63,611 nt of DNA, filler included, from Lenisia limosa (GCA_001655205.1; 10 parts of 10 records of this genome joined end to end with filler, not necessarily neighbours in it); one strand, 5' to 3'; counted from the whole stretch's first letter, positions 9,201 through 60,273 are shown. Made by a program: numbers and translations. Notes: generated by a model not told the origin, from the sequence alone.

Positions 9201-12200
9201 CTTGACCGATTTGTGATGTGATTTCCCAAGGAAAATCGGTCAAGACCTATCCCGATCACTGAAAACAAGTTGAAGAGTACATTTATTACCACTTCCCAAA
9301 AATGAAAAAAAAACTATCTGTTGGTCGAAATAAAAAGCAACTGTTTATTATGAGTGACCATATCAAATTATGACGATGTACAATCATAATAGAGTACAGG
9401 CCCGCCACCCACCAATAATAGCGGTTGTGGTGTGTTCTGTGATTGATAATTGGCCAATACTAGATGACAGAATGCCCAGTTTCGGGTTTGTCACAAACGC
9501 TTCCGATGACGGAACCTCAAAAGTCACAAATAATGGTACATGTGGAAATGGGCTTTCAGGGAGGATCATTCGGGTTTTTAACACCAATACTATAGCAAAT
9601 GCTATGCCAACAGCAACGGTAGAGAAAAGCAGTATACTATGGGAGTTCCTCCTACCAGGCCTCCTTTACCGGCAGCGGCCGAAGTCATCCACTCCCCATC
9701 AGCGCCAATTATATGCATGTGTCCAGGGGCTGCGTAGACCTGAGAGATGTAAAGATTTTGAGAAATACCAGATCTATATTTACAGAAGAAAATATTTGGA
9801 AACTTTCAATAAACTTGGTGCATGTATGAAAGAGAGACTGTACTATGGATTCGATAAAATAGGAGAGCTAAAACAAGGTAGTATTATAATGATGAAAATG
9901 CAACACAAACAATTATACCCCCAAACATCTCTGATCAGTGTCGAAGCTCCCGTGGGGGCAGCCCAGGGCCCCGCAGCATGCCCGCAGAATCCCGACCCGG
10001 AGCAAATGGTCCGAATGTGTCCGGTTGCTGACGGGGGAGGGTGATTGTAGCTTGTTGCAACCATGGTCTTTGAAGTGACCCCACATCCCTCCATTCTCCA
10101 CCCCAGCACTCCACCATATCAACACCCCCCACCATTCCAGACAGCCGCCGCATTTGAGGTGGCTACAGCTCGGGACACAGGCATGTCCAAAGTCAGCGCT
10201 ACCAACTCCAATACTGGATCAGGCATTCCTGGGAGGGGGGGGGGATGAACAGAGCATTTGAACCAACCACCCAGGCATTTGGTATCTAGTAAATTGGAAG
10301 TACATCTTCCAGGAGAGCATAAAAAATGACAAGACCAACAAAGCGACAACAAAAACTAATATCCTGGTGGTAATATCGTGAGAATGATGACTATCCTCTT
10401 ATACACGATATTAATTTTGAAATAAGGAAAAAAAGTAATGTTCTTACTGGCCGAATCCGTCCACACCATCAAGCTCATAACATATCATATTTATATAGTT
10501 ATAGTATGTATTATGGCTAAAAATCTTTTATTAGTTTGACTACGCATATATAATTCCATCATACCAAGAAAATAAAGGCTGCCAGCGTGCTTGCCCCACA
10601 CAAAAACAGTTCCGTTTGAATTGACCGCAATTCCACCTTCTTCATGGAGGGAAAAAGAAACAATCTTTGGTGTGAAATAAATGAAGAAGTAGATACGACA
10701 GATGTCACGATGAAAATGGAGACAACACAAGCTGAGGCTCACATTGGTTTTGACCTTGGTGAAACTCAAAAGATTTCCTGAAAAGTCATTAAAATGAAAA
10801 GCAGACAATCGTGTTCAACAGAATATTATGGAATATCATTCCAAGCAAAATCAAAAGAAAACAAGAACGAACCTCCGGAGTGCGGAATCCCTCCGAAGTC
10901 TCCTTTTCCGGCCACGAAGAAGTCACCATTATCTGGGTGGTTCACATGAAGAGTTTTCATAAATAATGTGCTTAACTGTAACTCGCAATAGATGATGTAT
11001 GCTGAATAAATTGTTTTTAATAAATTCACCTCTTTAGTTTGATAAAGACACTTGCATACCACTAAGAACAGCAGACGTTGCCGATGTTATAGCCACATCA
11101 ATCATCTTGCTAGTCCCAGTCTGGATTATTAGATGCTGTAGGGACAAAATGTTGTAAAACTGGTCCGGATAAACCACGAATAGAGACAAAACCGCGTATC
11201 CTGCGTGATATTTATTCATTATTATAAAAGCTGTTGTTTTGGAAGCAAGAGAGCCAATGTTGATGATCATATTATATTTACCAAAATCTTCCTGAAAATC
11301 TGGTAAAAAGCAGTTAAAAGATGAGGTCAGCGAAACTTTTTGTTCGGAAATCCGTGACAATTTTCTGGGTTGGCACCCTGTACATCATAGATGAGGCAAA
11401 TATAGCTATAACACACATGTATAAACAACCCGTTTCCTACGTTCTTAGGAATCAAGAGATTGTTTGTATTGCCAACTGCAGCCTACAGTATCAAACGCAC
11501 TCCTTCAAATGGTCATAAAAACAACTGATTTAAGAAAGAGTAATACCAAGTATTGACCTTGCCCCGATTCGCGACATACCTGACCAAAATCATTGCGACC
11601 ACAGGCGTGAACCGTACCTCGGACTAAAATGTTAAATGGATCCAAACGTGAACATTGAGATAACAACGAAGAGTTTGTAACTTTGAAGTTGTGGTGAATT
11701 TATTCTCAAATGTCGCCTTGATCGACTGCTGTATTTATGAAACGCAAGTAGTCATCATAACCTGTTGATCGGTTAACATTGGATATCGGATTGTAAATAT
11801 ATGCTGTCAAATATGTGTATTGTTAATAATCACCTAGTGCGTACATATCACCACTCAGTGTACATATATAACCATTCCACAAACTATTGATGAGCATTGA
11901 GGTGTGTGAATGGGCAATTAGGACAGTTGGTGGCATAAAAGCGGAAATTAGTTCAACTGGCCTGGAAGGGGAGGGGGAGTAAAATTGGATAATTTATTGA
12001 ACAAAAATAGCCTTAAATCAACTCTGTTGGCTGACAACAAAACAAAAAAAAAGCACAGGCCAGTCGCTTCTGTAGCACAGGTTGGGGGGGGGGGGGNNNN
12101 NNNNNNNNNNNNNNNNNNNNNNNNNNNNNNNNNNNNNNNNNNNNNNNNNNNNNNNNNNNNNNNNNNNNNNNNNNNNNNNNNNNNNNNNNNNNNNNNNNNN

Positions 12201-19999: not shown

Positions 20000-20013
20000 C
20001 GTGAGTCTTTGTT

Positions 20014-31455: not shown

Positions 31456-33649
31456 ATGCCTCCCTTCACCGTTATCCTCCCTCGGGCGGTCATTCAAATC
31501 TTACAGAAGAACCAGGTCTTTGAAGAGTGCCATTTCGAATGTAAGTTGTCCCCCGCTTTCACCACGCTTATAATGTCTAATTTTCTGGGGAAACATTGTA
31601 GTGGCTGTCTTGCATAAAAGCACACACAACTTGTAGCTGCCAGTCTTTTGTACATCTTTCTTGTATCCTTTAGTGTTTCTCGCGGTGATCTNNNNNNNNN
31701 NNNNNNNNNNNNNNNNNNNNNNNNNNNNNNNNNNNNNNNNNNNNNNNNNNNNNNNNNNNNNNNNNNCAGTATGGAGCTGCGAGTTGACGTTCACCATTGC
31801 AAAGGAAATGTTCAGATTCACATCGGAAGAGTCAACCATGAAGAAGAAGGTGAGAGGCGATGTGGTTATGTGATGTTGTCATTGAAGGAATTTGTTGACT
31901 CCAAGTTTCTCAATCAGAGTTAGCCACACTTGCCTAATTGCTTGTTTTGCCTTTCAACAATTTGGCGTCCTGGATGGATCCTGGGCTTTTCTATTTCATA
32001 CGTTCCATTCGCGCTGTGGAAACGACTGGCCTAGGCTTTGTTTGTTTTGTTGTTATCCCCTCGTGTGTTGGCAGCCAACAGAGTTGATTTTGGGCTTTTT
32101 TTTTGTTTCATAAATTTTCCAATCCCCCCCCCCCNNNNNNNNNNNNNNNNNNNNNNNNNNNNNNNNNNNNNNNNNNNNNNNNNNNNNNNNNNNNNNNNNN
32201 NNNNNNNNNNNNNNNNNNNNNNNNNNNNNNNNGCGATTCCCTGAGCTCATTGTTCTTCTGCCCTTCTATCATCGGTATGATCTTCATCCCGCTAAATCCT
32301 TTATCGTTAGTGGACATCTCTCACCAACCACAGGCCCACTTGCATCCTCCCTCCCAGGCCAACCCAAGAAAAAGATGGTGAAGGTTAGTGGGGGGATGAA
32401 AACAATCTCTCACCTTCATTATTTCTGAGTTTAACTCCTTTCATCACCTTCATTATTTCTGAGTTCAACTCCTTTCATCACCTTCATTATTTCTGAGTTC
32501 AACTCCTATCACCTGCATTATTTCTGAGTTCAACTCCTATCACCTTCATTTTGTAGAAACTGAGGCTGAAGTGAAGAGCAACAAACGCAGGGCCCCAGAA
32601 GGAGAAGCCCCTGTAGAAGTTCCTCTCAGAAAGTACTCCAAAGTGGGGGGTATGGATTGCGTGCCAATTTTAGGAATCTATAATAGGGATGGGGGCTTTC
32701 TTTCAACTTTTGCAAAGCCGTTGAACCCCTATTCCCTCATTTTTTATTGTCTTTTTGGTGGGGGGTGATTTATACTCGAGTCTTTCCCACTCTCTTTCGT
32801 TATCTTCTGTCTGCAGTATTTGACGATATAGACCCCCCAGAAGTGCCGCCTCAAGAATGGCCTTCATTACCACTTCATTGTAGACGGCATGACCTCCCCA
32901 GGAGTCGTGGGATACTTCCTGAATTTGCAGTGGGGGTGGTCAAGCAATTTGCAGTGGGGGTCAGCAATTTGCAGTGGGGGTGGTCAAGCAATTTGCAGTG
33001 GGGGTNNNNNNNNNNNNNNNNNNNNNNNNNNNNNNNNNNNNNNNNNNNNTTAATTAATTAANNNNNNNNNNNNNNNNNNNNNNNNNNNNNNNNNNNNNNN
33101 NNNNNCCTGGTCCGATTTGAGGAAGCAGATTCCGACGTCGGCAGTGCCGAAACAGAGACAGTGACCCGGTCCCAGGCGTTTAGCTTGTATGGGGATCTCA
33201 TAGCGTGCCCCTCCCTCCTTACCCCCAGTGATGAGAAGCAACTGAGCTGGCTTCTTTTTTTATGGTTTTCAAGCCCTTATGTGTTTTCAAATGTTTAGCT
33301 AACAAGTTGTTTTGTGGAGGGGGCAGTGTCTCACAAATTATTCCGTTTCATAATTCTCCAATTTCACCCCCCCCCCCAGATGGGATGGTGCCAGTGNNNN
33401 NNNNNNNNNNNNNNNNNNNNNNNNNNNNNNNNNNNNNNNNNNNNNNNNNNNNNNNNNNNNNNNNNNNNNNNNNNNNNNNNNNNNNNNNNNNNNCGGCCAT
33501 CCGGGCGACGTCGAATCCGAGGGCATTGATGAGGGTATGCGGTTGTGCCTTCTTTTTGACTGTTTTAAATAAGAAAATTGATTTTTCCTTTGACCGCAGT
33601 AGATGTGGCCAGCTCTTCAGTATTAGACAGCCACAGTGCTGTTGAGTGA
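31456..33649 (+). CDS. Multi-exon protein of unknown function, weak chromo-shadow-like segment
   Basis: Exons MPPFTVILPRAVIQILQKNQVFEECHF; RFPELIVLLPFYHRYDLHP; ETEAEVKSNKRRAPEG; TPQKCRLKNGLHYHFIVDGMTSPGVVGYFLNL; LVRFEEADSDVGSAETETVTRSQAFSLYGDLI; ..SHSAVE*. Interrupted by four gaps. Confidence 0.5.
32410..32550 (+). repeat. ~33-bp tandem repeat x4 (tcaccttcattatttctgagttcaactcct..) ending at a 3' splice site
   Basis: Direct inspection; the last unit runs into ttgtag|AAACTGAG. Confidence 0.9.
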
Positions 33650-33906: not shown

Positions 33907-36900
33907 ATGGCGGCGAAGCCGAGACGAAGCGAATGTCTCCATGATGAGAGTGAAGGTGGAGGACACGGACAAGCTACCAAAAACAGTCATCACGATGGGA
34001 TGGCAGAATATCCGATTAGTTCTGATTACTTTTGATGTGTTTGCAATTTTGAAAAAAAAACAATGCCCCTTAAGCACCCAAACACCATGGAACATCGTAC
34101 CATTGGTATAAACGAAATTGACGAAGATGTACATGGAATAGAAGCTCTTGATGATAAGGCCAAAAAGAAGGCTGTGAGCTCTTCTACCCTTGTTGATGAT
34201 GATTTTGATAATAAAATTACTAACCCGTCCAGCTTTTCAAGCTTTCGAAGGCTGAGGAAGCAGTGCGCAAGATCGGTATGGGATCATATCGTCTTGATCA
34301 TATCGCATCACTGTCTTGATAATGGACCGTGTTAACAACATAGGAATTGCCCATGCAGCCACACAGGAAGAGGGGCCCTCCAGAAAGGATCTTCTCAATG
34401 AGGCGGTTCTCGAGGATTCCAAGACCATGGAGTGGGTTCTTTATCAAAAAGGAAATCATGCTTTAGCTTTATCAAGAAGGAGATTGAGCATCTCCGCAAA
34501 GTCATCCCTGCGGACATTGTCGAGGCGCTGCACCCTTTAATGTGTCAGTTCTTGATCCAGTAAGTGGGTAACAGGTTGTAATTTTATTTCTCATAGGTCA
34601 CATCATTCTTTTTCTCCAGCATTCTAATAATTGAATTGTTACTCGTGTGGCATCTCATTGAGTCAGGAAAACCAAGCACAAGAGGGCCTTCCTTGAAGTC
34701 GCCTTCCCTGCCGGCTATCCCTCTAATAACCTTGTTGTCACGGTATGCTCATAATAACCGGAGAAGCTTGCTTGCAATAATTCCCTTCAGTGTGTATGAA
34801 TAATTATCATGGAATCCCTTTCATTGTTTTTTTTTTGTTTTTTGCAGTAAAGTCTCCCTGAAACTCGAATCCGTAATAAACGACAGCTCTAACTTTCAGA
34901 TTAAATCGAAGACTATCTCGGAGACGGTGTGTCTCAAAATTAAAGCAGCATGTGAGAAGGCGGTCAATGAGCTGAAAGGCAAGATGCAAGTTGAGGCAGC
35001 CGTTAAGGTCGCCAAGGACCTCATATTCAATAACAAGGTTTGTGGGTAACGCAAAACTCTCCATCAGAATCATTTTCTTTTTCTAGTTTGCCTTATTTTG
35101 ATTATTTATATCATTTCATATCACTTTTAGTTGATCATGTGCATTGATGAGTTGATGTCAATCAAAAAGCATTTTGTCAAGAAAGGAGTAAGCAATGGTT
35201 TCAGCATTTGTACTATATGACTCTTTTTTGTTTGTAACGTGGGCTGTTTGGTTTGAAAAGTCTGCCTGTCAAAACTTCTCTATCATCCATCATCAGTATA
35301 TTCCCATCTATGAGTGCGAGCATCCAATAACCCACATTTTCAGGATATCCTCAAGATGAACGATAAGACAGGTGTAGTCAAGATGACGTGTAAAGAAAGG
35401 GGATACTTCTACACGTTGCAGCTCAATATCCCTGATGAGTACCCCGCTGAGGTTTGTTCCAGTAGTTCTCGATAATGGGTTGGTTGGTGTGAAATAGAAC
35501 CGAATCTGAGCGCAGTGAAAAGATGGTGCTTTTTGTTTAGATGTCCTTGATTTGAATTCTGATGATATTGCCTTACCTTTTAGAAGCCGGACCTCTTGAT
35601 GCAAGAACATAACTTCACTCCTACTGCTGAACGTAAATGGGGGTTGAAAAGTCACACTATCTTAGCTGCATTCATTGACCGGATGTGTAACATTTCATTG
35701 TTTTCTTCGGATCTTTCCTTTTCTCTTGATGGCTTAATTAGAACATTATTTCATTTCGACGTCAAAAATACCACTTAGACATTGCCATATCTAACTAATC
35801 AGGGATATTCTGTGCACAGACTGAGGAAGCGCTTGTTGTGGCTCACAGGAACATCAAGGCTAAAAAGAGGAAATCCGACGTGGGTCTTTATCACATACCA
35901 ATCTCATTTATCCTGCCACATGCAGTGCTTTTGTTTCATCAAGACCGGTTTTCACTCTCAACTGTTTTATCATAGAGTGTAATTGGGGGGATTGTAACTG
36001 ACGTACTTTAGCCTGACCCAGAGCCAGCGCCCTGCATCAAAGAGACATTGGCGTTCTTCAGTGCCGATCTGGGTGGGGGGGGAGGGCATGAGCGCTTGGA
36101 AATAGGGTATTACTGCGTGGTTTCTCAAGGAGGGCTGTTCATTCGCAGTATTAGATTTTATGGGTTTTAAAACAACTTATGGTAAGGAACTGATTATGGT
36201 AGTGCACCGATGGCCTCGAGAAAAGTGCCCGTATTGCAAGAAAGACAGCATCGCGTCAAATCCTGACGAGGGTACGGGGAAGCCTTATATTGATATCAAA
36301 ATGGTGTATTTCAGAGCACAACGGTAAAAGTAGACGTATTGACAGTTTAGCGCGGAAGGTACCTCGGGAAATGAGAGCCGAGCGCATCCTCTGTGGCCAC
36401 TTGTTCCATGGCAAATGCCTAGACTCCTACATGTCTCAACCACCCTTCCCACCAGGCGGCAAGACATGCTCAATATGCAACGAAGTGAGCATCGAATCCT
36501 TCGCATATTCACTGCCGAGCTTCAGCCAATACGATGCAAACAATTCATAACGTCGATTCTAACTATAAGGACTTAGTGGACGGCTTCGGCCAGATAGAAC
36601 CTTGTTTTTTTGCATCTCTATTGAATAAGGGCCTGATTTTGAAAAACGGCATTCATCCCCTAGGTGGTGTATCACAAGAAGTACAATCTGGACGCCTCGG
36701 CGTTGGAGAGACGATGGGCGTTCAAGGAGGCCAGAATCAGGGAGGTGTTGGACGGTGGGGGGAGGGGAAATAGGAGGCCAGAACGTCATCGCTACCTTTC
36801 TCTTTTCAGTTAAATGGTTTTCAAATGAGTCACCCCCTCCTCCCCGTTTGTTTTTTTAGTGTGTTGTCAGCCAACAGAGTTAATTTGGGCTTTTCTGTTT

Positions 36901-37108
36901 CATAAATTTTCCAATTTTACTCCCCCCACTCCCTCTTTTGTTTATGGAGTTTCAGATTATTCGGTTCGTGATTTGTACCTTTACGCCACCATCGAAATTT
37001 CCTTCATTTTACTCCCCAGTGTCGGAGTTTCTCAACGTTGCTGACGAGCATCGCATAGCAGACGTTGACGTTGACGGCGTATCAAAGACAGTTTCCCTCA
37101 AGCAATAG
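33907..37108 (+). CDS. RWD-domain (two RWD-like) plus RING-finger putative E3 ligase
   Basis: RAFLEVAFPAGYPS and FYTLQLNIPDEYPAE (RWD FPxxYP-type motifs). C-terminal CPYC..ERILCGHLFHGKCLDSYMSQPPFPPGGKTCSIC (RING-H2-like), then YHKKYNLDASALERRWAFKEARIRE and ..SLKQ*. GT-AG junctions. Confidence 0.75.
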
Positions 37109-37224: not shown

Positions 37225-40206
37225 CTATGAGAGAAGTCTCTTTTCCTAAACTGTTAAGCCGCAACGTGTGCGTGTAGCACAAAAGTCTTTCCATGTCTCC
37301 AAAAAGATAGCAAGAGTAGCCTAATCCACACCTCTTCTCTCCTCTGTTTGCCCTGTCTGTAAGCCTTGACAATCTTCTCCAATGCATGAACCTTTCGCGA
37401 TTCAATAACCTAAAAAAAAATCACTTCCTCACAATACCTCCACCAATATGAACATTAGTCGCTCCCCAAGAACACGCCCCCCCTCTCTTCGCTCCTACCT
37501 CGGTTCCTGTTGACAGCACTTGGAGCGATGCAAAGAGACGAGCCTATACGGTCAAGACATTCCAACACTATTGTCTCGTAAAGTACATAAGCCAACCTGC
37601 TTGACTCTGAGAAGCTCATCAAACTCCTCTGGGAGGGCGCCCGTGATGTTTAGGGCTTTTCGCATCACGGCCGTCAGGAGCGGCAGGAAGTGCACAACCA
37701 TCTCCCTCCTCCCTAAATAGTCAACACTCTGCGTGAACGTGGCTCCAAAGAAAGGTCAGGCACAGATTACCCGACAACATCTCAAGAGTGACGCATCAGT
37801 GCAGGAAATAACACCGAGAGCTCAACAGCATGATAGATAGTTCTCATGGTGAACTACCCAACGAACCTGAGAATGTTCCGACGAAGACCGGCAGTTGGAG
37901 ACTNNNNNNNNNNNNNNNNNNNNNNNNNNNNNNNNNNNNNNNNNNNNTTAATTAATTAANNNNNNNNNNNNNNNNNNNNNNNNNNNNNNNNNNNNNNNNN
38001 NNNGCCCCCCCCCCACGTTCAGCTTCTGGGCGTTGAGATTTGCTCCATGAGAGATGAGAGTTTCCACCCCACTATGAACGTATTTGACCGCAACGTGCAG
38101 GGGAGTTGCTCCCTTGGGTGGGGGAGGGGAGTAAAACGAAGGAAATTTCGATGAAGAATATATTGGCGTAAAGGTACTTATCACGAATCGAATAATCTGA
38201 AACTCCAAACAAACAAAAGCCAGATGACAAAAACACAAAAACAAGCCCGAGTCAGCCTTTGAAGAGTCCCACCACCGCTCAAGGTAAATAAATTTTATGA
38301 CATGTATAATGTTACCTATTCTGTACTACCAAAAGGCATCTCTCCTATCCTGAATAAACCTCAAAATATGATGGTGGTTTCCCGAATAGGGTATTATCAC
38401 ATTTTAGTTTATTCTCCCCAGTGAACCCGAAATCTGAGACGAGCCATAGAAGCAGCATACCTTATTGTTCTGTGCGTTGACATCAGTACCGACTTTAAGC
38501 AGAATGTCGAAGGAATGTGTATTCATGGGGTGACATGCGAGATGTAAAGCAGTAGAACCCTAGCAAATCAGCATCAGGTGACAAAGTGATGCTGGATGAT
38601 CATAGAGAGTATTGTAACGATTTACAAGAGGCACTCAACAGCCAACGATAGGCAAAATCAAGAGTAGTTTCTGTATCAAATAGTAAGTATACCAGTAAGG
38701 TTTGGAACAGCCACCCACATCTTCAGCCTTGGAATTGATGTCTGAACCAGCAACAAGAAGAAGATTAATACAGGCTTCTTCTCCGCAAAAATAGGCCTTA
38801 TGCAGAGCCGTGAATCCCTGTGGAAAGATCAATACACAGAAATAAGTCAGGAATTACATATGTACAATATCATATGTATATTACCCATACACGCAAGCAC
38901 ACACACCCACCTGGGCATCCTTTACATTTGTATCGACGTTCATTTTGATGAGAAGGCCAACCACATCGGTCTGGCTGTTTTCAATAGCTGTATGAAGGAG
39001 GGGGCTGGCCTAAGGTGTAAAGAACGTACAATGTGTAATAATTGGTTTAAATGCGGTAGACATCAATATCGTTAGATTGAGGAATACAGTATACAGAAAT
39101 AAAGCAGAAGCTCACATCTTCACTGTTGAGAGGAACGTCAGGAAAAGATTTGATTAAATGTTCAAGAACCTGGGGATGCCCTCCGATAGCCGAAAAGTAC
39201 AGTGCATTGCGTCCCTAAAAAATAATTAAAATGGGGGGGGGGGGGGTCACAANNNNNNNNNNNNNNNNNNNNNNNNNNNNNNNNNNNNNNNNNNNNNNNN
39301 NNNNNNNNNNNNNNNNNACAGAGAACCCCCTACCTTTTTATCGGAAATATCTGGAAGAGCAGCCGATGCTATCAAAGTGCGGATGACGTCCATATAACCC
39401 TTGGAGCAAGCCAAGTGAAGAGGCGTGATGTTCTGGGGAGGGGGGGGGTGACTCGAGTCTCTAATCAGTTAAAGATGGAATTTCTTTCCAATGTTTGATG
39501 TTTGGCCGTTTCCAGCAAAAGCAAAAAAAAGAATGTTTCAAGAATTGCACAATGGTGTTTCATCTCTCCAAAACCAAAGATTGTTCTCTACGAGAAAAAA
39601 CCATTACCCCTCAGCCATATCCCACATTGACGTCTTTGGCGTTGACGTTGGCGCCTTTCGCGATCAGAAGACATACAATGGCAGTGTGGCCGTTTTCACT
39701 GGCAATGTGCAGTGGTGTCCAGTCTTGAACCTAATTCGGTAACGGATGTTGGTAAACTGTATTCGTTTCACTGGGCAACTGAAGGAAGAAATTAAAATAA
39801 TCCTCCTTTTAAGCCCCCCTAACACAAGGTCCTTCAATAAGAATACTTCTACGCTGCCAGGCAATCTGCAAAGGTGAGTATGTTGAGAAAACGTTGATAG
39901 AATTTGTCGCGACGAGAAATAAAACAAGGTGGCATCTGGCCAAAGCTTCCCACACCATCACGTTTATATGAGATATTGGATTATTGAAAACAACACTCTG
40001 CATACAATAGAATAGTTACGATGGAATAGTTATGAGGATCAATTCTAACACCCCCCCCCCAACATCTTGCTTCTTATACGAGACCTCAGCCCCATCGTCA
40101 AGCAAACGCTGTACAGCTTGAGCATCGCCGGAAGAACACTTCTCGTAAAGCGTCTGCCGGATGTCAGTGTACAACGCCTCACACCATAAACTTCAGTTTG
40201 AGCCAT
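37225..40206 (-). CDS. Ankyrin-repeat protein (about 7-8 repeats) with helical C-terminal tail
   Basis: Exons: DWTPLHIASENGHTAIVCLLIAKGANVNAKD; ITPLHLACSKGYMDVI; GRNALYFSAIGGHPQV; SPLLHTAIENSQTDVV; GFTALHKAYFCGEEACI; GSTALHLAC; GATPLHVAVKY. Start MAQTEVYG at 40206; ends EKRLLS*. Confidence 0.9.
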
Positions 40207-42228: not shown

Positions 42229-43141
42229 AACTGTGAGGGGGGGGGAGTAAAATGAAGTAAAACGAAGGAAATTTCGATGAAGATATTGCTGTTAAGGTAC
42301 AAATCACGAACCGAATAATCTGAAACTATAACAAACAAAAAACAAGCAATAACAAACACGAGGATCCGAGAATCTAAAGTGTGTTGTGTGATGGTGCTTC
42401 AAAACACCAACATGCACCCTCCAGGTGCTCCATGTGATCAAAATCAAAAAAAAAAAAAAAAANNNNNNNNNNNNNNNNNNNNNNNNNNNNNNNNNNNNNN
42501 NNNNNNNNNNNNNNNNACAATGATTTCCCTCAGATATGTCATATTGGAAAATACATATCATATGGATTTCGTATGGTTTACAAAGATGGAACCGGATAGA
42601 GAACCAACATACCTATATACTACTTATCAACCAATAAAAAAAAAACTGAAAAAAGTTCCACTTAAAGGAAAGGATGGGTCGAGGGTAGCGGACCACAGTT
42701 GTTATGCGATTTGCATCTCTCTCCCCTGTCCTCCTCCTCCTGGGTGTGCGTTTTCTGCGCTGTTTTTCATAGTAGTATAGTAGTATGAGTCTGGCGTGAG
42801 TGATTGAAATGAAAATAAAATCCCATCAAGGCCTCCATTCTCCAGGCACCGGCGGAGGTGTAATAAAACTCTTCAATCGCTCTCGCTCCCACACTGATTT
42901 TTGCACCAGTTGCCCAACTGACGTTGCACTGACGCTTTATTGATGCTGACATACCTCCTCCCCCCAACCTCCGAACACATCTCCCTCTGATCCTGCCTGC
43001 CACACCTACTTCACTTACATACATACCATAATTAATTAGTTTACTTGTGTACTGCCAACACTTTGAACACAAGGACACTACGCATCAACTCCTCCTGCAA
43101 TCCCACTGATCAGTACACCACCATCACTTCAGAGATTCGAT

Positions 43142-47062: not shown

Positions 47063-49713
47063 TAACGTCGGAGTTAGCAGCATTGATAAGGTCCGCAACC
47101 ACATCGTGGGAGCAATCTGAAGGAAAGTCAAGAAAGGACATTATATCATCTCATATATAGTACTATAATGAAATAAAAAATATGTAGAAATGATGGGAGG
47201 TGGGAAATGTCTGGGTAAGTGAAGGGACAATACCATAGATGCTAATATTATTATACGATTAAACATCATGGGAGCAATCTGAGGGGAATTCAAGAAAGGG
47301 TATTATTTCATATAATAAACAATATGTTGAAATGGTGGGAGGTAGAAGCAAACTAGGGGTGTTTCAAGAGAGGATAGAATTTCTAATTGTGTACTATTTA
47401 CAATAGAATATCATACAGTTTTAAATAATAAACCAATATGAGAAGACTCTTTCAGCTCCCTGGCCGCAACAAAGACTCCATCCCCCTCACCAAGCATTCT
47501 CTCAATGTCAACAACATGGAAAAACACCATAATTTTAATGACCAGGAGCGCGTCGTCTTTGGTTCTGGGTATGGTAAATTATAATTGCAACAAGGTTTCA
47601 CTTCGGTTCGAAAAAGACCTACACAATATCGATAGTTTTCCTTACCTGACATCGGGGACATTGTAGTACATAGAGTCGGAGATGGTACGCAGAGTTTGGA
47701 ACTGGATATGTTAGATTTATACGACTCCAGGAAATTAATTTTTAGGAACTAATTAACAAAATTGTATTTAAAGTGTCTTAAATGGTTCACAATTGGATGA
47801 GATGTAGCAATGAGAAATTAAAACAAAAAAAAACAAGGTTGTATCTGGCCGANNNNNNNNNNNNNNNNNNNNNNNNNNNNNNNNNCAATCATTTGCCTTT
47901 CAACTCTACGCACACAGCTTTCTGTGTGCCACCCCAGCATATACTTATACATTATTATATCATATGACCGATAGTATAAACAAAAACAAAACAGAACACG
48001 CAATTACAATAACGCTCCCCACCTTAAGACCATTGGGCACTTTGCTGGTCTTTCCATCAACTGAGCCATGCCACGAAAACTGGTGGGCCTGAGGGAAGGA
48101 GGGAGTAAAATTGGAAAATTTCTGAAACAAAAAGCACAAAATCAACTCTGTTGGCTGAAAACACACGAGGGTTGATAACAACAAAACAAACGAAGCCCAG
48201 ACCAGTCGCTTCAGCAGCACCGCATCCCATCACTCCAGGCCAGAGGGAGAGGGGGAGTAAAAATGAAAAAACAGCATATCAATTTTGTCAAAATTTTAAC
48301 AAAATATCACCTCCTTTAAACCCAACAATCATTAGGGCTTCACTTCGGTTCGAAAAAGATCGGTAAATAAAATATCGATAGTTTTCGAAGATTTATCGAG
48401 AAATTCAGTCTTTTTTCGAACCGAAGTGAAGCCCTAAATAGCATTCCCCAACCCCCACCCATTCCGAGGGACTAGGGAAGAACACAGCGGGGCCATGGAT
48501 CAGCCGTCTCGTGACGTCACCATCCTTCTCAGTGTACACCACAATACAGTACCTGAGGGGTATGATTATATATTATAGCAATGAGAAATAAAAAAATAAA
48601 GATGTATCTGGCTGAAGCCGTCCACACCATCACCCTTATAAGAGATATTGGATGATAGTATAATATTAATGCACCCAATCCTTTGCCTTACAACTCTGTG
48701 CACACAACTTTCTGCGTGCATGAGAAGTGTGATTCTAACAATATGTTCCTGGGGTCTCCCGTAATCATATATTATATGACATATAATACTATATATCGAT
48801 ATAGGGCTATATGCATATGATATTACTGACTACAAACATATCATATTATTGCATATCCAGTTAAGCCCCACCCCCACCCGGAAGAAACGTTAATAGCAGC
48901 CTTAAGCGCAATGTATTCGTGTTCTGTGGGGNNNNNNNNNNNNNNNNNNNNNNNNNNNNNNNNNNNNNNNNNNNNNNNNNNNNNNNNNNNNNNNNNNNNN
49001 NNNNNNNNNNNNNNNNNNNNNNNNNNNNNNNNNNNNNNNNNNNNNNNNNNNNNNNNNNNNNNNNNNNNNNNNNNNNNNNNNNNNNNNNNNNNNNNNNNNN
49101 NNNNNNNNNNNNNNNNNNNNNNNNNNNNNNNNNNNNNNNNNNNNNNNTAGCCAGAAACTCCTTCTGGGACGCGGACACGAGACGCAGGAACTGGTACTTA
49201 GACCCCCATAAATGAGGTCGGGCTGGGCCCTCCACGTAGGTGGCACGACCGTTCTTCTTCCAAATAAGCTGGGGGGGGGGGTGAAATTGGACAATTAATG
49301 AAACAAAAAGCCCAAATCAACTCTGTTAGCGCGTAGGTTTTGTAAAATTAGATAATATATGTAGTACATACATATAGTATATAATATATAGTACATATAT
49401 AATGACCATAATAAACCTTGACCGATTTCCTCTATGAAATTCACAAGGAAAATTGGCCAATACTTATCCTGGCCATTGTATATAGCTACATATCATTGTT
49501 TGTATGAAACAAAATCCCAAAGAGCGTGGGGGAGGAGGGGTATTATATATATATAAAAAAAAAAGAGCATGGGGGGGGGTGCATGCTCTCCAGAGTTGAT
49601 TTGGGCCCTTTTTTTAACAACATATCATTGTTTGTATGAAAACAAAATCCCCACCCCACCCACCACAGCTTCACCATCCTTGACAGTCAAGTGGCCATGC
49701 TTCGACTTTGGTG
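47063..49713 (-). CDS. Major-vault-protein-repeat / SPFH(band 7)-like protein, partial (3' part lost in the gap at ~46930-47030)
   Basis: Spliced: LTVKDGEAV|LIWKKNGRATYVEGPARPHLWGSKYQFL..SQKEFLA; EHEYIALKAAINV; YCIVVYTEKDGDVTRRLIHGPAVFFPSPSEW|AHQFSWHG; FQTLRTISDSMYYNVPDVR|TKDDALLVIKIMVFFHVVDIERML|DCSHDVVADLINAANSDV. The repeated V-x-GP motifs and an SPFH-like C-terminal part were recognised by eye. Confidence 0.7.
48089..48270 (-). mobile_element. Intronic repeat family A (introner-like), most complete copy; other copies at 1-31, 11962-12080, 32004-32134, 33300-33379, 36859-37020, 38113-38240, 42231-42365, 49269-49330, 51223-51275, 58915-58979, 60125-60229
   Basis: Shared GAAGCGACTGG..TTGTTTTGTTG..CAGCCAACAGAGTTGATTTTGGGC..TTTCATAAATTTTCCAATTTTACTCCCC..AG. 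Subfamily: GTTTCAGATTATTCGGTTCGTGATTTGTACC..ATCGAAATTTCCTTCGTTTTACTCCCC..AG. Confidence 0.8.
48333..48436. mobile_element. ~100-bp MITE with TAGGGCTTCACTTCGGTTCGAAAAA TIRs (hAT-like termini); full copies also at 58304-58403, 58759-58858, 59425-59522; partial copies at ~47594, 49895, 50275, 50737, 51567 and 63529-end
   Basis: Near-perfect ~25-bp TIRs, with the conserved core AATATCGATA..GATTTATCGAGAAATTCAGTC shared by all copies. Confidence 0.85.
48575..48720 (-). mobile_element. Intronic repeat family B (~150 bp); other copies at ~6571-6640, 10445-10475, 21175-21330, 29150-29310, 36575-36625 (opposite strand), 39905-40000, 47805-47945, 51085-51140, 53035-53225, 54075-54180
   Basis: Shared + strand text GCAATGAGAAATAAAAAATAAGGTTGTATCTGGCCGAAGCCGTCCACACCATCAC..ATAAGAGATATTGGATGATAG..CACCCAATCATTTGCCTTACAACTCTGTGCACAC. 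Confidence 0.8.
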
Positions 49714-50449: not shown

Positions 50450-52745
50450 TGAGGAATATTGACTCCGAATTGGCATGGACACGGACTTGTCTGATCACAA
50501 CTAGATAAGTGACAGAGTGCCACTGGTATTGGAACTCTTATCTTCGTTCATCATTTCGAATGGAAAGTAAGTCATATCGAGATGGTCAAATCACATGTGG
50601 ATATTGGTCAATATACGGAAGGGTAGTTGTCCAATATTGAGACAGATATCATATGATATCTATTTTCTGCCAGACCGACCCATGGCTTTTTTGGTTTTTA
50701 TATCTATTAGATAACCGGCTTAACATCCACCATCATTAGGGCCTCACTTCTGTTCGAATAAGTCTTGTAAAATATCGATAGTTTTCTAGGATTTATCGAG
50801 AAATTCATTATTTTTTGTGATCTTAAGTGCAGCCAAGCCATCATTTAGAACCAAATTATCGCAAACCATGACGCTACTGCAAAGTGCCCGCATGGTTGGG
50901 TGAATTTCGAGGGTTGCTTGCAAATTGCATGTCCATGACAATTCTGAATAGTTAAAGATGTCAATTCTGGAGATCACAAGAGAGCAACGGTAATTTTGTG
51001 ACATGTCAGTATGTTCGGTTTCAAGTTTAAATTCCAAGCGATATATCCAACTTTTATTGTTATTTTATAAGGACGAGAAATAGAAATTAGGAGTATTTGG
51101 GCGAATCCATCCACACCGTCACACTTATAAGCGATATTGTTAAAAACGAAAATGTTTAACGAACCTTTGTGCATTCTCCATGAGTGTCACACTCAAAAAG
51201 ACAAGGAGAAGAGCATTGCGGGCTGAGGGGGTAAGTAAGAGACAAAGAAAGTTGCCCAAAATCAACTCTGTTGACTCATTAACAAAGTGGAGCATTCTCT
51301 TAAAAAGCGAACAAACTATCGCTAACACGATTAATAAAAAAAAAAGATCCTTCATGAAACAAGAAATCCAAACGCTGGAATACAAATATTACAAAAGTAA
51401 CAACACATAGGAAAAACAAGAGAACTCCGAGAACGTTATTCCTGGTACAGAAGCCAACCCCCCACCGTCTTATCAAGGGTCCAGTTGAAGATAGGGGGGT
51501 AACGGAAGAACGGCAGTGCGGACACATCAGTAACCAATCTATTATGTGAGAGACTTTCTTTTTTCTACCGAAAGTGAAGCTCTAGTGTTGAACCCACCAT
51601 CAACCGGCCCTTTGTTCGATTCGTCAAAAGCATCTACTACCTAAATAGTTAATTCAGTATTAGAAGCACGTTCCTTTCAATATTGCCATATATAAGTCAC
51701 AATTAATGGTTACGGTACCCTGTATTTCAACGTGTCATTCTTCTTGAAAACAAACCAACATAACAGCAATTAGTGTGAAATGTACATTTTTAAGACCTTT
51801 TTCCAGCACGGCGATTTTGAAACAAGGTGCTCGTTTCCAATGATCACGAAGCCTGACCTTGCTCTTGAACCTAATGGGGGTTATATAATGGTAATGGGGG
51901 TTGTATATAATTAAATCCATCTTACATGAAACAACAGCACGGTTCTCTAGTCGTAGAAATTCGGTCAATTGGGTGGTTCGAGTGAGGCTCAAAATGATAA
52001 TCTGTGGGAGGGGTGTGAGGCTTGGGGGGGGGGGGANNNNNNNNNNNNNNNNNNNNNNNNNNNNNNNNNNNNNNNNNNNNNNNNNNNNNNNNNNNNNNNN
52101 NNNNNNNNNNNNNNNNNNNNNNNNNNNNNNNNNNNNNNNNNNNNNNNNNNNNNNNNNNNNNNNNNNNNNNNNNTCTTTCCTGAGCTAAGCCGTAGGTAGA
52201 TCCAAGGATCACACTAGCGATCAGTCCACATCATCATGTTATCAGGGATCTTGGATTATATAGTCTCAGAATGAAGTAATCTATCATGTTTATAATTAAT
52301 GTTGATATTATAATAGTGAAAGATTAGGCTTCGTGATCATCGGAAACGAGCACCTTGTTTCAAAATCGCCATCCTGGAAAAAGGTCTTAAAAATGTATAT
52401 ATATTTCATATTAATTGCTGCATTTCATATTATAAGGGATATTGGTTAATAGTATCAGAGTGCAGCCGTCCTCACTATATATAATTAAAACCGCTGATAA
52501 CACAAAACAACAAATGTTCCCCAGATATATGGTCCAAATGTGTGTTTCTGTTGTCTCAGATTGAAGACTTATTTGTTTTAACAACAAAGCATAACACGTT
52601 CAGATATGAAGTGGCCAGGGTCAAAGTAACAATTATACGTAATTTCCGAAATTGGGTAAAATTCCATGTTCCCAAATAACTAATTACCCACAGCTTCCTC
52701 TTTCTTCCCCAGGATGGGAGGGGGAGGACTGGCGTCGGGGAGGAA
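50450..52745 (-). CDS. Fragmentary exons of an unidentified gene
   Basis: GT-AG bounded exons LVTDVSALPFFRYPPIFNWTLDKT (~51455-51530), RNALLLVFLSVTLMENAQ (~51165-51222) and PPPPILGKKEEA (~52690-52730); linkage unproven. Confidence 0.3.
51764..52420. repeat. ~95-bp inverted-repeat pair (51764-51854 / 52326-52420)
   Basis: cagcaatt..acatttttaagacctttttccag..gattttgaaacaaggtgctcgtttcc.atgatcacgaagcct and its reverse complement, with few mismatches. Confidence 0.85.
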
Positions 52746-52922
52746 AACACCAGCAAAAATACGCCCTTTGAAAACTAACAAAATAGCACCATGACACACA
52801 CGTGGTTGGGGGGCGGGGCNNNNNNNNNNNNNNNNNNNNNNNNNNNNNNNNNNNNNNNNNNNNTTAATTAATTAANNNNNNNNNNNNNNNNNNNNNNNNN
52901 NNNNNNNNNNNNNNNNNNNACA

Positions 52923-54035
52923 CCGTATAACCCCCCCCCCCAGGCTGTATGGACAGAAAGTGACGAAAAAGAGCTTCAAAGGCTACAAAGCGCTATGAAG
53001 GTGGTTCGAAGATTTATATGATATCGATATTTTGAGAGATGAGAAATAAAAAATAAGGTTGTATCTGGCCAAAGCTGTCCACACCATCACGCGTATAAGA
53101 GATATTTAATTATAGCATAAAATTAATTCACCCANNNNNNNNNNNNNNNNNNNNNNNNNNNNNNNNNNNNNNNNNNNNNNNNNNNNNNNNNNNNNNNNNN
53201 NCACACAGCTTTCTGGGTGCCTCCTTCATAACAAATCTGACTAGTTTGTAGGGCATTTGCACATTCGGAGAGGACCCTGAAGAGGAGAAAGCTAGGAGGA
53301 TGAGGAGACGAATGGTGGGAATGGGAACTGTTCGGTTTCAAAAATTTCCCAGCCAAGATAATCCACCCTCACAACACATATTACACACACACACACAACG
53401 CATGTGTTTTATTTATTTCCCAAATTTTTATTCATGTACCTTATTCTTGCACTCAAGAAAACAATCATTTCTCAGGCAAGAAAAGACCAAGTGGAACGCA
53501 GGCAGTTGCGGAAGAGGCTGAATCACGAATCTGAAATCCGCGGTAGGTAGTGAGATTTCGGGGGGTTTACTTTTTGCTTTGGGCTTGGTTTTGAGTATTT
53601 CTTATGATATTTTTTTGATTGGTATAATTGGGATATAGCTCACTCTACCCCAGAACAAATAGTTATGGAGAGTAGTATATCGTATGGTACATAGCTTTCG
53701 ATATATCTTTTCATGCTTTTGCTGAATGTGATCAAAGCCAATTCACGATTTTAACGTTTTAGCGAAATTTTAACGTTTTAGCGAAGTCACGTGACCGGCC
53801 ATGGGCCCAACCCGCAGCAGCCCCCCATGAGAAATGGGGCGGCGGCCAGGGGGCCTTGGATTTCAGCTTTGAAGAAGAGTCCCAGCGGGCCAAAGTGGGA
53901 AGTATATTATTTCATTTTTTTGTTTTGATAATATTATCCATTCCTACTTTATCCATTCTTAATTAATATTATTTCAGACGCGTGACAGGCGACTAAAACC
54001 TTGGGAGATCAAAAAAACGAAAAAACCCTCGTTGT
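52923..54035 (+). CDS. Fragmentary exons of an unidentified coiled-coil-rich gene
   Basis: Exons AVWTESDEKELQRLQSAMK; ARKDQVERRQLRKRLNHESEIR; APHEKWGGGQGALDFSFEEESQRAK; TRDRRLKPWEIKK, each with AG/GT ends; flanked by gaps. Confidence 0.4.
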
Positions 54036-54494
54036 GGGGGGGGGGAGGCTTCGGCCAGTTACTTCATTTACATATAACAAGGCTGCGTCTGGCTGAAGCC
54101 GTCCACACCATCACACTTAGAAAAAGATGCTTGATTGCTAGTGTTATATTAATTCACCCAATCAGTTGCCTTACACTCTACATAAGTGGCCGAGTTTGGC
54201 CTTGACCGCGTATTTGGCCTTGACCGCGTATTTGGCCTTGANNNNNNNNNNNNNNNNNNNNNNNNNNNNNNNNNNNNNNNNNNNNTTAATTAATTAANNN
54301 NNNNNNNNNNNNNNNNNNNNNNNNNNNNNNNNNNNNNNNNNGAGCCACATATACCTTGGTAATGAGGGAAAGCGCCTTCAGTTGCAGACCCAGTGCTACC
54401 TGGAAAAGTCAAACTAACAATTGGTATTAAATTTAGAGTACAGTTTAATATTAAATTAAAATTAAATGCAAAAAGCAAAGTCAAATTATATATC

Positions 54495-55110: not shown

Positions 55111-55617
55111 TTGGTGTGATAGTATTGTAGTTTTTTAGTCTCATGTAAACATGCTCTCATAGTATTTTATGGATGAGTCTCCTCCCTCTTCCTCTATGCT
55201 TCTCATCTTTTGTTTAACAATATCGTCCAGTTTGATGGGGTTTGAAGAACATTTTCTTAAAACCTCCACTATGCAGACTCTCGCGTTAACGTGAAATTAA
55301 GTAAATTATTAAACTTCGATTACTCAGGCGAAAACAATAAAAGGTTATTATAGTACAGTTAAAGTAAGATAAGATTAAATTCTTCAATTGATACTCAAAT
55401 AAAGTTAATTTAAGTAAAATGAAAGTAAATATTTGAAGTAAATTGAAGTTAAATTGAAGCTGCATAATAAATAATTGAAAGTTAAAGTAAAATATAAGAA
55501 AAAGTGCCCTCAACCCAGGATAAGTCATGACCGATTTGCTATAATTTCCCAAGAAAAATCGGTCAAGCCTTAGACTGGTTACTCTATATCAAGATTAACC
55601 CCCCATCCCCCCCACAG

Positions 55618-58600
55618 TGGCGATAACGGACTGGGCCGCATTGGTTCGGTCCAGGTTATCAATGCAGTTGGTCCGGATAATGCCAAATTGGCGGCTCTGC
55701 TGAGACTGTCCAGNNNNNNNNNNNNNNNNNNNNNNNNNNNNNNNNNNNNNNNNNNNNTTAATTAATTAANNNNNNNNNNNNNNNNNNNNNNNNNNNNNNN
55801 NNNNNNNNNNNNNTTTACTTTTTACTGAGCTTGAAAGATTTTTTCAAGGCTTCTGCATCTGTAAACCTAACCAAATAGATTTTGCATTTAATCATTGTTT
55901 AGAATTCCCCAATTACTCAAGTCTCTCCGGCAGCTGTTGCCCGGCAAGCAAAGAAAGCCAAGTCAGAAGTAGTGGATGAGGTCCACGAGTCCCGGCCAAA
56001 ATTTGGTAGGCAGCATTTTTAACTAAATGTTCAATGTGTTTTTTTCATTGGTTGTCATATCGGCCTTCATTTCGGACATATATTTCTAGATTCCTAGTGA
56101 ATAATGGGATAACATATCATAGATATACATGTAGTTTATATGTGAGATGTCATATAGTATACATATACTGGCGGTCATCTTAATTATTTTCCCGTGATAA
56201 ACTTGTTCACCCAATTTTGTTTTTTGGAAATTTAATAGACATGTACAAGGGGAATTTCACGTAGCACAAATTTGACAAGAGGTTGAGACGGTATACCAAG
56301 GGATATACTGTCCAAAATTTTGAAAACCTGACACTGATTGCCAATCGTTCTAGCAATTTTATAAAACAAAACAAAATGATATCGAAGTACTTTTCACAAA
56401 CTCTTTTTCCTTTCATATCATTAATTGATCTACTATGTCTTATACTATACAGTGACTGGGCTTGACCGATTTTCTTGGTGATTCATAGTAAATCGGTCAA
56501 GACTAAACCCGGTCACAATATAAAACTATGTAGCTATGTAAGAAAAGGAATAATCCTTTCCAATACTTTTTGCGTCCAGCAAGCAATGGAATGATCGCCT
56601 TAAAGGCGAACTTGATATTGTCACGATATTCACCCTAAGGCAGGTAACACTCAATAAAGCCGAGGATATGTCAGCAAAATCCCGACCCCCCCCCTCTACA
56701 CAATCTATCTATTGGACTTACAAAAACTATATACCTTGATAGCAAGGTCGAAGTCATGAAATTGGTAGAGCACTTTATGCAGGGAAAACAAGCGGCCTGA
56801 AGGGGTATCCCAAACTGAGTAGCCACTGGCCACTTAGGGAATGGGGGATTTGGCAAAGGAGCGGACGTCATCATTGGAGTTTTAAAATCTTGAATTAGAA
56901 TAATACACATACAGAACTTTGTTAGTGACACTCTAGCAGTATTAAGGATCACCATCCTCCAATGATTCGTATGCCCATGCTCATATGAAGAGAATAATGC
57001 AGAAGAGCCTCAAAGAGCACACTCGAAGCCATGGAACCCAGTATGAAAGAACAAATATTTTCATTTTGTAGTATATCCCAAGAGCAGCTGGCCAGTATCA
57101 TGAGGCATGTTCTATACTCTGTTTCCACAGAAGTTATCAAGAAGCGTATAAAAACATGTGGCTTTTCAATTGACAAATACTAGCCAATGGCTATTCCTGA
57201 CAAGTCCTATGGCCCAGGCAAGGCTTATCGTTTCCCAGACTACCCCGACTCGTGTGACTCTGAGTACAAAGCATCCCTCTTTTCTGAAGCAAACATGTCA
57301 GCTCCCCCAGGAACTGTCAACTTATGCACAATGTCACCTGCTGACATCACATTCCAAGTGGAGGCTTCAGAACGGGAACAGGCCGACGCCAGGACGCAGC
57401 TTGCGGAATGCCCCGTTATTGCTGAACTTGGAGATGAGATTTCCGTTGCCAAGCGAGCATATTCCACTGCTTCAACTGCTGNNNNNNNNNNNNNNNNNNN
57501 NNNNNNNNNNNNNNNNNNNNNNNNNTTAATTAATTAANNNNNNNNNNNNNNNNNNNNNNNNNNNNNNNNNNNNNNNNNNNNGATTCGATGAGCTGGCCCG
57601 CGAGCGATCTTGAAACGTAGTTCTCAAATGCTTCGTCCTGGACAAATCAATCTCACCCTAATTTGGCCATCCACATGTAATTTCTTTCAGGTATTCGGAT
57701 ACATAATAATCTCTTTAAGGCAGCCACCAAAACAAGGTCTGTTTTTTTTTCTCATTAGTTACCTACAGTGACCGAGATAAGCCTTGACCGATTTTCCTTG
57801 GGAAGTCATAAAGCAGCAAATCGGTCATGGCTTATCCCGGTCACTGTATATCACATAGCAGATTCGGTCAAGACTTATCCCGACCACTGTATATCACATA
57901 GCAACTCGGTCATGACTTGTCCCGGTCACTGTAAATTGCAAGCTCCACAGTGGATAACACCGCCGCCCCCACCTCATCCACGTCCACGATGTCGGCGAAG
58001 TTGACTTCACCCGGCCGGAGGACCACACCCCTCGAGAGCTTTTGCTGCGTGGTAAAAAAGGATATGGGCAAGGATATGCAGGAAAGTCGACAACAATCTT
58101 TGAAACTCTAGATAAAACGCTACCATATGATATAACATCAGAAGATCATTTAAAGCGATTACAAATCTCAGAATTATGTTCTTGAAAATGAAACTGTAGT
58201 TGTAAAATAATAGACTGTGATTGTATTCGCATCCCTTTTGAAAAGCTATGAAAAATGATTGCTTTTAGGGTGCATGTATGAGAGCCTTCAATAAAACAGT
58301 ATGTAGGGCTTTACTTCGGTTCGAAAAAGACCAGTAAAATATCGATAATTTTCGAGGATTTATCGAGAAATTCAGTCTTTTTTCGAACCGAAGTGAAGCC
58401 CTAGTGGTTAAGCAGTAGCAGGGGGAGGTGGTTGGTGTTATTTACAAGTCCCGAAAAATGCCTAGAAAGGTAAATAATGCGTTCATAGTTTCCAAAGCAA
58501 CTAAGGTAAATAATGCTGACATAATTCCCAAGGCAACTAAGGGATCGTCAAATGGCAGGGGAACGTGGGTTTGTTCGGTCGGGGTATTTGGGGGGGGGGG

Positions 58601-60273
58601 GTCTNNNNNNNNNNTGTTTCATGAATTTCCTTCCTTTCACACCCGAAGGCCTTCACACGTTTTCCCTCGCGCAGCTGGTGCATTTGCACGCAGTACAATC
58701 AGCGGCTGTTTTTCTTCCTGTCCTCACAGTGGGAGGTATATATTATGAGGATGGTTAATAGAGCTTCACTTCGGTTCGAAAAAGACCGGTAAAATATCGA
58801 TAATTTTCGAGGATTTATCGAGAAATTCAGTCTTTTTTCGAACCGCAGTGAAGCCGTAAGCAGTTATCTGTTACTACGTTTGGTTTTCAACCTATTTTTT
58901 AAACAATAGAAATGTACGTCAGCCAACAGAGTTAATTTGGGCTTTTTTTTGTTTCATCAAATTTCACTCCCCCCCCCCCNNNNNNNNNNTTATGATAATG
59001 CTCGTAGAATTCCGTTGCAGTTCATGTCCTTTCCTCAATTCTCCCCCCGGACTTTTCCATCAGCCAACTTTCTCAGTTCACAGCGCTAATCAGGTCGTCG
59101 ATAATGAAACGTGGGGGTGCAGGAATCAGGTAGTCGATAATGAAACGTGGGGGGGTGCAGGAAAATATAAAAAAAATGGGAGGAAGAGGAAGAGGAAGAG
59201 AGAAAGAAGAAGATGAAGAAGAAGGAGAAGGAAAATTGGGGTAATATGTAACATGATGGGGATGGCTGAAAGAAGAATACATGGTATAAAATGATGGGTG
59301 ATTATGTAAGTGCCGACAAGTTATGACATAAGTCTCAATAATTTGAGTTTAAAGGAGAGAAGAGATCTTGTATTGATAATGAAACGTGGGGTGGACAATA
59401 CATGGTCTCATACAATACACTAAGTCGATTCACTTTCGGTTCCGCACCTGTAAAATATCGATATTTATCGAGGACTTATCGAGGATTTATCGAGAAGTTC
59501 AGTAACCGAAAGTGAAGCTCTAACACTAAGCATCCCCCCTCCTCCATAAAAGCCACACTCACAACCTCCAGTACTCACACAGTCAAAATTTCCTCTATCC
59601 TGGGACCTTGGTGTGTTTGACGATGATTTTGACGGCCTTGAAAAGGTAGTGCTAGGGAAGTAGCGAACGAATCAGGGGGTGTAGCGAATGAAAATACTAT
59701 ACTCCCAAGAATTGTACGAATCTTAGGAATTTTGTACTTAGGGGTCAAAATCGTACTTGGTTTACTGAAAGACTGAATTTCCCAATAAGAAGTCCTCGAT
59801 AAATATTGCTGTTTTGGCAGGTATTTCTGCGTTCCCTCTCTCGGGATGAACCCCATGTTATCTTCATTATTTCGCATAAGTTCCCTACTACGACACATCA
59901 TCAACACAACATGGTAAATCTATACAATACGTTTAATTCCTAAGTCCCAAAAGGGTTTAAGGTCTCTTAGTAACATTCCAGTTGGAAAGTATGGCAATGG
60001 AGGCAGCGGAAGGTCCTGCGCAATTCGAAGCAAATCGCCTGGCTAAAGCCCTGGTTGAGAAAACTATCACCATCCACGAAGCTGCTATGGTTTGCCGAGG
60101 GTGTTGGGGGAGTGTACCCTCAGGATTGGCCTGGGCTTTTCTTGTTTTCAACAGTTTATTTTGGGCTTTGTTTTTTGTTTCATAAATTGTACGCTGGAGT
60201 GAGGGGATGCAGTGCAGAAGCGACTGTCCTNNNNNNNNNNAACTCTCTAACGATCATGTTGTTGCCATGAAGT
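55618..60273 (+). CDS. Multi-exon gene(s) of unknown function, gap-interrupted
   Basis: Plausible exons: GDNGLGRIGSVQVINAVGPDNAKL; NSPITQVSPAAVARQAKK; KQWNDRLKGELDIVTIF; ORF 57187-57480; GLHTFSLAQLVHLHAVQ; HVLSSILPPDFSISQLSQF; DLGVFDDDFDGLEK|VFLRSLSRDEPHVIFIISH; LESMAMEAAEGPAQFEANRLAKAL. May be two genes. Confidence 0.35.
57766..57846. mobile_element. Tc1/mariner-type MITE (~80 bp); related copies at ~9185-9261, 49412-49490, 55517-55575, 56451-56520, plus partial tandem copies to ~57932
   Basis: TA|CAGTGACCGAGATAAGCCTTGACCGATTT...AAATCGGTCATGGCTTATCCCGGTCACTG|TA: ~29-bp TIRs beginning CAGTG, with TA flanks. Confidence 0.8.
59425..59522. mobile_element. Copy of the TAGGG-MITE flanked by an 8-bp direct repeat (ACACTAAG)
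   Basis: acactaag at 59417-59424 and 59523-59530; the left TIR is degenerate. Confidence 0.65.

Follow-up and report, generated by a model that had tools for sequence, protein, structure and literature searches.

A 63,611-nt stretch of Lenisia limosa DNA (GCA_001655205.1), referred to here as the window, is intron-dense, contains 40 gaps of N and carries an interspersed repeat, family A, that supplies the pyrimidine tract up to the AG of working splice acceptors; the conclusions on family A apply to this window. The repeat had been proposed, from the DNA alone, to be an intron-generating or acceptor-donating mobile family. The second half of this original prediction is upheld by three verified acceptors and a fourth with indirect support, while intron generation is unsupported in the window because none of the copies extends across an intron, the introns concerned resemble one another at their 5' ends only at background level and an intron position in an ankyrin gene is shared by sister repeats that lack the element. 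Family A is an acceptor-supplying repeat, and the pattern is real and unusual, if narrower than the one first claimed. As the best explanation (probability roughly 0.45), we propose that family A, which is non-coding, present in many copies and ~150-170 bases long, is likely a non-autonomous mobile element that colonises the 3' ends of pre-existing introns in the sense orientation. The broader statement that it is a secondary colonist and not an intron creator, which also takes in two alternatives discussed below (one relying on selection only and one without a transposon), is considered probable.

Two sequencing runs of the same study were used as assembled contigs: a DNA run (X1), which contains 0.99 of the sampled words and may be the window's own source, and a poly(A) RNA run (X2), with the limit that contig assemblies drop rare RNA forms. 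Two public transcriptome proteins, P0001 and P0002, match window exons at 100%. By Pfam, P0001 is a Band 7/SPFH protein, and not the MVP-like protein that its gene was first taken to encode; P0002 is an RWD-RING protein, and its Atlas look-alikes are RWD-RING proteins across many eukaryote groups. The intron reference set comprises 31 introns whose boundaries are fixed by a protein or by RNA, taken from four genes picked for carrying family A copies. One P0001 intron in this set was hand-corrected to the second of two duplicated acceptors (47118); at this place in the Band 7 gene the acceptor and the first six exon codons are duplicated (47262-47310 and 47100-47150, minus strand), and P0001 uses the downstream copy in full.

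P0001 fixes two introns with family A ends, both on the minus strand. The first (49663-49269, 395 nt) ends with a 3' fragment of subfamily A1 (49269..49330), and its acceptor is also fixed by a spliced 1474-nt RNA contig that opens an exon at 49268 (piece 49148-49268), directly after the A1 end. The second (48458-48089, 370 nt) ends with the sole full-length A1 copy (48089..48238, 150 nt), and the RNA bin depth fits an acceptor at 48089. On the plus strand, P0002 fixes the last RWD-RING intron (36755-37019, 265 nt), which has at its 3' end part of a copy of subfamily A2 (36937..37019) and, upstream of it, a 3' part of A1 without the terminal AG (36846..36936). Both Band 7 acceptors had been predicted correctly, and so had the RWD-RING acceptor, apart from its position, which is 37019 and not 37020. 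The fourth case is the 348-nt ankyrin intron 38460-38113 (minus strand), flanked by two exons that both match Pfam Ank and ending with an A2 copy (38113..38280), of which bases 38126-38280 are matched at ≥95% by a contig from another locus. Here the RNA depth is flat (2.68 per 298-nt bin) and there is a loose end at 38016, as for a spliced transcript, which is consistent with the acceptor predicted at 38113; this support is indirect, coming from bin depths, and no splice joint is found among the RNA matches listed. At the verified acceptors family A runs up to the working AG, so that the repeat itself serves as the polypyrimidine tract, as proposed. Acceptors of family A introns are C-rich, and most other acceptors are not.

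A family A end lies at the acceptor of 3 of the 31 reference introns (28 have none), a share that is inflated because the four genes were picked for carrying copies. For the three verified introns and the ankyrin intron, the joint chance that the repeat ends ≤20 nt from the acceptor is 1.3e-4 under uniform placement.

The repeat itself is well defined. Its end motif has 7 matches in the window at ≤2 mismatches, where 0.17 are expected by chance, and blastn and nhmmer matches among the copies reach down to an E-value of 1e-37. Profile searches found 13 loci (1394 bp, 2.3% of the non-N sequence), close to the dozen or so copies first counted. The two subfamilies with a common 3' end are also confirmed: A1 and A2 differ in their middles and share the TTTTACTCCC end, and the stretch from TTTTACTCCC to the AG varies between loci. 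A1 copies are ~65-90% identical over their alignable parts, A2 reaches ~168 nt, and a TTTTAC motif within family A is a candidate branch point. Between 47029 and 50171, unique sequence has a DNA depth of 18-29, and within A1 the depth rises to as much as 602,868; this figure comes from 21,841 contigs over three repeat families jointly, so the ~10^4-fold excess is rough and is not a copy number. From this depth and the density of 13 loci per 63.6 kb, we infer that the genome holds thousands of copies, on the order of 10^4. An exact 21-base A1 motif had no match in metagenome, viral and prokaryote collections, and an exact 22-base A2 motif had none in metagenome collections.

Family A copies are sense to their assumed host gene at 12 of 13 loci (binomial p 0.0017). 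The original prediction of copies that are always sense agrees with these 12 loci if the assumed strands are right; the host strand is verified at only six (five sense and one antisense, a 24-nt fragment at 49591), and was otherwise assigned by eye from donors and frames. AT skew, a weak strand check, agrees with the assumed host strand at 10 of the 13 loci and disagrees at the verified locus 36846 and at 58917 and 60124. The repeat is spliced out in sense from the three verified introns and, on indirect support, from a fourth, the exceptions being a retained copy at 42231 and the antisense fragment. None of the 13 loci holds a full copy in antisense, and none is clearly intergenic.

The remaining copies are less informative about acceptors. 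The A1 copy at 11962..12078 (minus strand; C-run and assembly gap upstream) and the A1 fragment found by profile match at 51223..51280 (minus strand) stand at acceptors that are plausible and predicted only. A protein search with the exon after 11962 gave no match at E-values up to 1, and the RCC1/7TM label given to this gene received no Pfam support from the two pieces tested. At 33229..33396 (plus strand), a decayed A1 copy lies behind an acceptor-like tract, and the bases after its AG at 33379, which had been read as an in-frame exon, match the start of another family A unit, followed by a gap. The A1 copy at 32011..32134 (plus strand) enters an assembly gap, as does the A1 3' fragment at 58917..58979 (plus strand, host strand assumed; a 10-N gap). 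A donor inside A1 near 32004, where it had been suggested that the intron might begin, was rejected as the site aligns to an element-internal position; a better predicted donor lies near 31851. An internally deleted A1 unit behind an acceptor-like CAG occupies 60124..60230 (plus strand), with a second unit head to tail from 60189 and then a gap, and no acceptor was seen at these tandem units. Finally, an A1 unit start is cut by the window edge (1..35, minus strand, sequence match). Gaps start beside five family A loci, at 12097, 32135, 33397, 58980 and 60231. Other gaps (21413-21512 and eight similar ones) are 100 bases long with a fixed 12-base linker in the middle, and because of this linker neighbouring segments may be artificially joined.

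Introners are repeats that form whole introns, and the accessible parts of PMC9860276 recognise them by similarity near both intron boundaries, with partial matches treated as secondary insertions. In the window this similarity is confined to one end. We compared seven family A introns (four verified and three predicted) with 28 other introns (30 less two shorter than 75 nt). The last 60 nt of the family A introns are alike (mean pair score 34.4 over 21 pairs, versus 13.7 over 378 pairs of other introns), whereas the first 60 nt are near background (15.1 versus 12.7), the single high pair being due to an unrelated palindromic element. In introns 395, 370, 348 and 265 nt long, family A accounts for the final 62, 150, 168 and 175 nt, respectively (16-66%), and these four verified introns exceed 30 others in length (p 0.004). 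Donors rich in G do not set family A introns apart (p 0.15); many verified donors (e.g. 36073, 41595, 48022 and 48877) are followed by G-runs, with or without family A.

The ankyrin gene bears on the age of one such intron. Each of its exons is 32-33 codons long and encodes a single repeat, the introns are all phase 0 and lie at one common point, and A2 is present at only one of five acceptors inspected. Since sister repeats without A2 have their introns at this point too, the position is likely older than the A2 copy found there. A comparison with 149 homologs shows neither gain nor loss of residues at the two Band 7 junctions, which is neutral on the introner question. The outcome comes close to the case that the original prediction had set against itself, namely a repeat that colonised pre-existing introns.

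A true introner lacking terminal inverted repeats (TIRs) and target-site duplications (TSDs), of the fungal introner-like element (ILE) or Micromonas introner element (IE) type, is nevertheless worth considering. Its unit would be a mobile intron of ~155 nt, the copies in the window would have merged with older introns at the AG/exon boundary, and whole-intron copies would lie elsewhere in the genome. A unit of that size would be of ordinary length for an intron here (57-435 nt in the window), and the unit at 60189, like one DNA contig, begins with a donor-like GTACGC and then becomes G-rich, as real donors do here. The part of PMC3879977 available likewise describes merged or nested IEs and remnants inside canonical introns in Micromonas. 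However, whole-intron copies are found at none of the 13 loci and whole-element introns at none of the 31 verified introns, the full A1 copy begins 220 nt past the donor of its intron, similarity at both ends is absent as judged against what is accessible of PMC9860276, and two other unit starts (35 and 48238) lack GT. We consider this explanation rather improbable.

The literature on introners, as far as its accessible text goes, offers further points of comparison. As in family A, the introners of PMC9860276, PMC12130899 and bioRxiv 10.1101/2020.10.14.339549 are sense, non-autonomous repeats in introns of unrelated genes, some classes of which carry the 3' splice site. In the available portions of the last two sources (the bioRxiv one on Polarella ILEs), introners with a 3' splice site take their donor from the target duplication, and the element equals the intron. 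Such introners generate the intron and show similarity close to each of its ends, whereas family A makes up the last 16-66% and has no common donor end, TIR or TSD. Micromonas IEs resemble family A in being sense repeats found in pre-existing introns or near untranslated regions (UTRs), with tandem merging, and the reverse-splicing models proposed for them need no TIR (PMC3879977 and PMC4540971, the latter giving sense-only insertion by this model, in the text accessible). The excerpted PMC3879977 counts 463 IE remnants that have lost both splice sites, 32 of them inside conserved canonical introns. These remnants are, on the accessible text, a minority beside thousands of whole-intron IEs, whereas for family A only copies covering part of an intron are seen in the window, and these hold the working acceptor. 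The accessible part of PMC11282704 gave no closer parallel, and a literature search on repeats that target or replace splice acceptors found nothing relevant, most subscription papers being outside its reach.

The pyrimidine-rich stretch of Alu and other short interspersed elements (SINEs) can act as a polypyrimidine tract, and Alu typically makes new alternative exons from antisense copies. Unlike Alu, family A remains within introns, and the acceptors that it supplies appear to be constitutive ones belonging to conserved coding exons. A miniature inverted-repeat transposable element (MITE) or other TIR DNA transposon would have TIRs and a locus-specific TSD; the two termini of the full-length copy have just 3 to 6 bases in common, and a permutation over nine loci gave no TSD signal (p 0.55, with old copies and low power). 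A tRNA-derived SINE would have a tRNA-like head and a poly(A) or simple-repeat tail, which family A does not fit: ARAGORN found no tRNA gene and Rfam gave no match on any copy at E-values up to 1. Tandem units and the lack of a TSD would suit a Helitron-type element; A1 has no stable hairpin (its full-length copy does not fold stably, z +1.4), and the Helitron terminal motifs were not matched. As for an autonomous partner, no transposase, reverse transcriptase or Rep-helicase Pfam domain was found in the 150 longest of the 162 N-free window open reading frames of ≥72 aa.

Evidence for a discrete element that returns to one kind of site comes from its boundaries. At 48238 the match of 18 DNA contigs (three joint rows) breaks off, marking a fixed 5' boundary there. 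Head-to-tail stacks occur at 36846/36937, 48238/48266, 33229/33380 and 60124/60189; in the second of these, the full A1 copy is stacked directly against an older family-end remnant, a pyrimidine tract without AG (48239..48266, minus strand). One tandem junction is also present in DNA contigs from elsewhere. Six of 15 element starts have ≥8 C in the 12 bases just upstream, the background being 1.1% for intron windows and 2.5% for the window in full, and CAG stands directly ahead of three of the 15. A short, C-rich, acceptor-like motif, possibly a third module, is common to an ankyrin acceptor (39454, minus strand) and the tract just upstream of the RWD-RING A1 part (36827, plus strand).

Insertion can be primed by homology through retroelement enzymes. 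In the mechanism that we favour, a new family A copy would probably insert beside a C-rich acceptor tract, either at the older tract itself or immediately behind it (in many cases the tract of an older family copy), and would be targeted by likeness between its own C-rich end and the target. The older tract would be pushed upstream, usually losing its AG, and copies that opened a cryptic acceptor or lay antisense would be removed, likely by selection.

Several observations weigh against this proposal. First, the A2 copy at 42231..42346 (minus strand) ends 2 nt ahead of an ATG, where an acceptor had been predicted, and the main RNA contig (740 nt) spans 42145-42321 without a joint, so that the copy is present in RNA and likely lies in the 5' UTR; a rare spliced form may exist. 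Second, the A1-like fragment at 49591..49614 (plus strand, E-value 0.0024) lies in antisense within the Band 7 gene, close to where intron 49663-49269 has its donor. Third, the C-tract test is not fully independent because three of the six are themselves the ends of older family copies, and nine of the 15 element starts have no C-tract. Fourth, DNA depth is ~600,000 in mid-element (48167) and ~115,000-172,000 near the acceptor end (48122-48136), which suggests that many copies may not share that end, a pattern that variation in T-run length could also cause. The negative TSD and Pfam searches, the basis in one window and the behaviour of a second repeat, family B, point the same way.

In all three of its verified hosts, family B lies in sense yet stops short of the AG, its ends lying 17, 42 and 100 nt before the acceptor, as a general filter would leave it. 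Family A might accordingly be an ordinary non-autonomous transposon, blind to splice sites, of which purifying selection in short introns keeps the sense copies whose tract leads to a real AG. Misplaced tracts would be costly in introns of 57-435 nt, the two families share a ten-base start motif (drawn after both had been viewed), and no TSD signal is seen. However, antisense full copies and clearly intergenic copies are both missing among the 13 loci, and head-to-tail stacks behind acceptor-like tracts suggest repeated hits at one kind of site. We regard selection alone as an unlikely, if serious, explanation.

A further alternative dispenses with the transposon: successful acceptor regions would spread as intron 3' ends are copied from gene to gene, either through ectopic gene conversion or when an excised intron is reverse-transcribed with another acceptor as the priming site. 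In the window, copies are anchored at the acceptor end and their 5' cut points vary, and several different modules are stacked in one intron (36755-37019). In addition, the two longest A1 copies continue from the AG with GCC into the exon, and the residue encoded by GCC in P0001 is rare among homologs (5/146). This sign is limited to two of eight AG ends, however, the depth peaks in mid-unit, and the fixed boundary at 48238 in many contigs suits a discrete element better; spread without a transposon is very improbable. Distinctly improbable as well is a parasite defined by splicing, in which excised intron RNA (tract plus AG) would be recopied at other acceptors by likeness, with no promoter or terminal repeats, and thousands of constitutive 3' splice sites would derive from one or two repeats and be repeatedly overwritten.

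Other repeats and features lie around the family A copies. Family B (~160-170 nt, ~14 loci, DNA depth up to ~315,000) is found in the 3' half of introns, with loci at 48570-48719, 47802-47941, 21172-21325, 29151-29315, 36570-36621, 39901-39993, 53028-53134, 54070-54177, 16689-16806 and others. A palindromic, MITE-like 100-nt element with long inverted ends (DNA depth up to ~700,000) starts 22-24 nt past the donor in two introns and occurs at 48337-48436, 58304-58403, 58759-58858, 50737-50836, 63529-63611 and 47594-47640; all five weak, below-threshold microRNA-type Rfam matches fall on it. Intron 49269-49663 folds far better than shuffled sequences (z -7.6); it has another palindromic repeat in its middle, and its donor-side antisense fragment resembling family A is able to pair with the sense copy at its acceptor end. 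A dispersed, partly palindromic repeat (family D13) is present at 9214-9260, 49431-49477, 55537-55583, 56471-56517 and 57799-57930, in tandem near 57800. Short tandem arrays of 31-34-nt units lie inside introns at 32410-32553 and 43846-44010, the second overlapping a donor of a gene labelled by eye as prenyltransferase-like. Pfam identified a Rad51-like domain (29965-30225, minus strand) and, below cut-off, ephrin-receptor-like cysteine repeats (4077-5481, minus strand) and RSN1_TM (19133-19441, plus strand).

Introner surveys that drop partial-intron repeats as secondary insertions, as in the accessible text of PMC9860276, would miss a family that replaces acceptors. Should the rest of the genome show the same pattern, one repeat would underlie a few percent of the acceptors in L. 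limosa, as estimated from its density in the window. Splice signals would then turn over without intron gain, and thousands of sites would be available to weigh reverse splicing or homology-primed insertion against selection.

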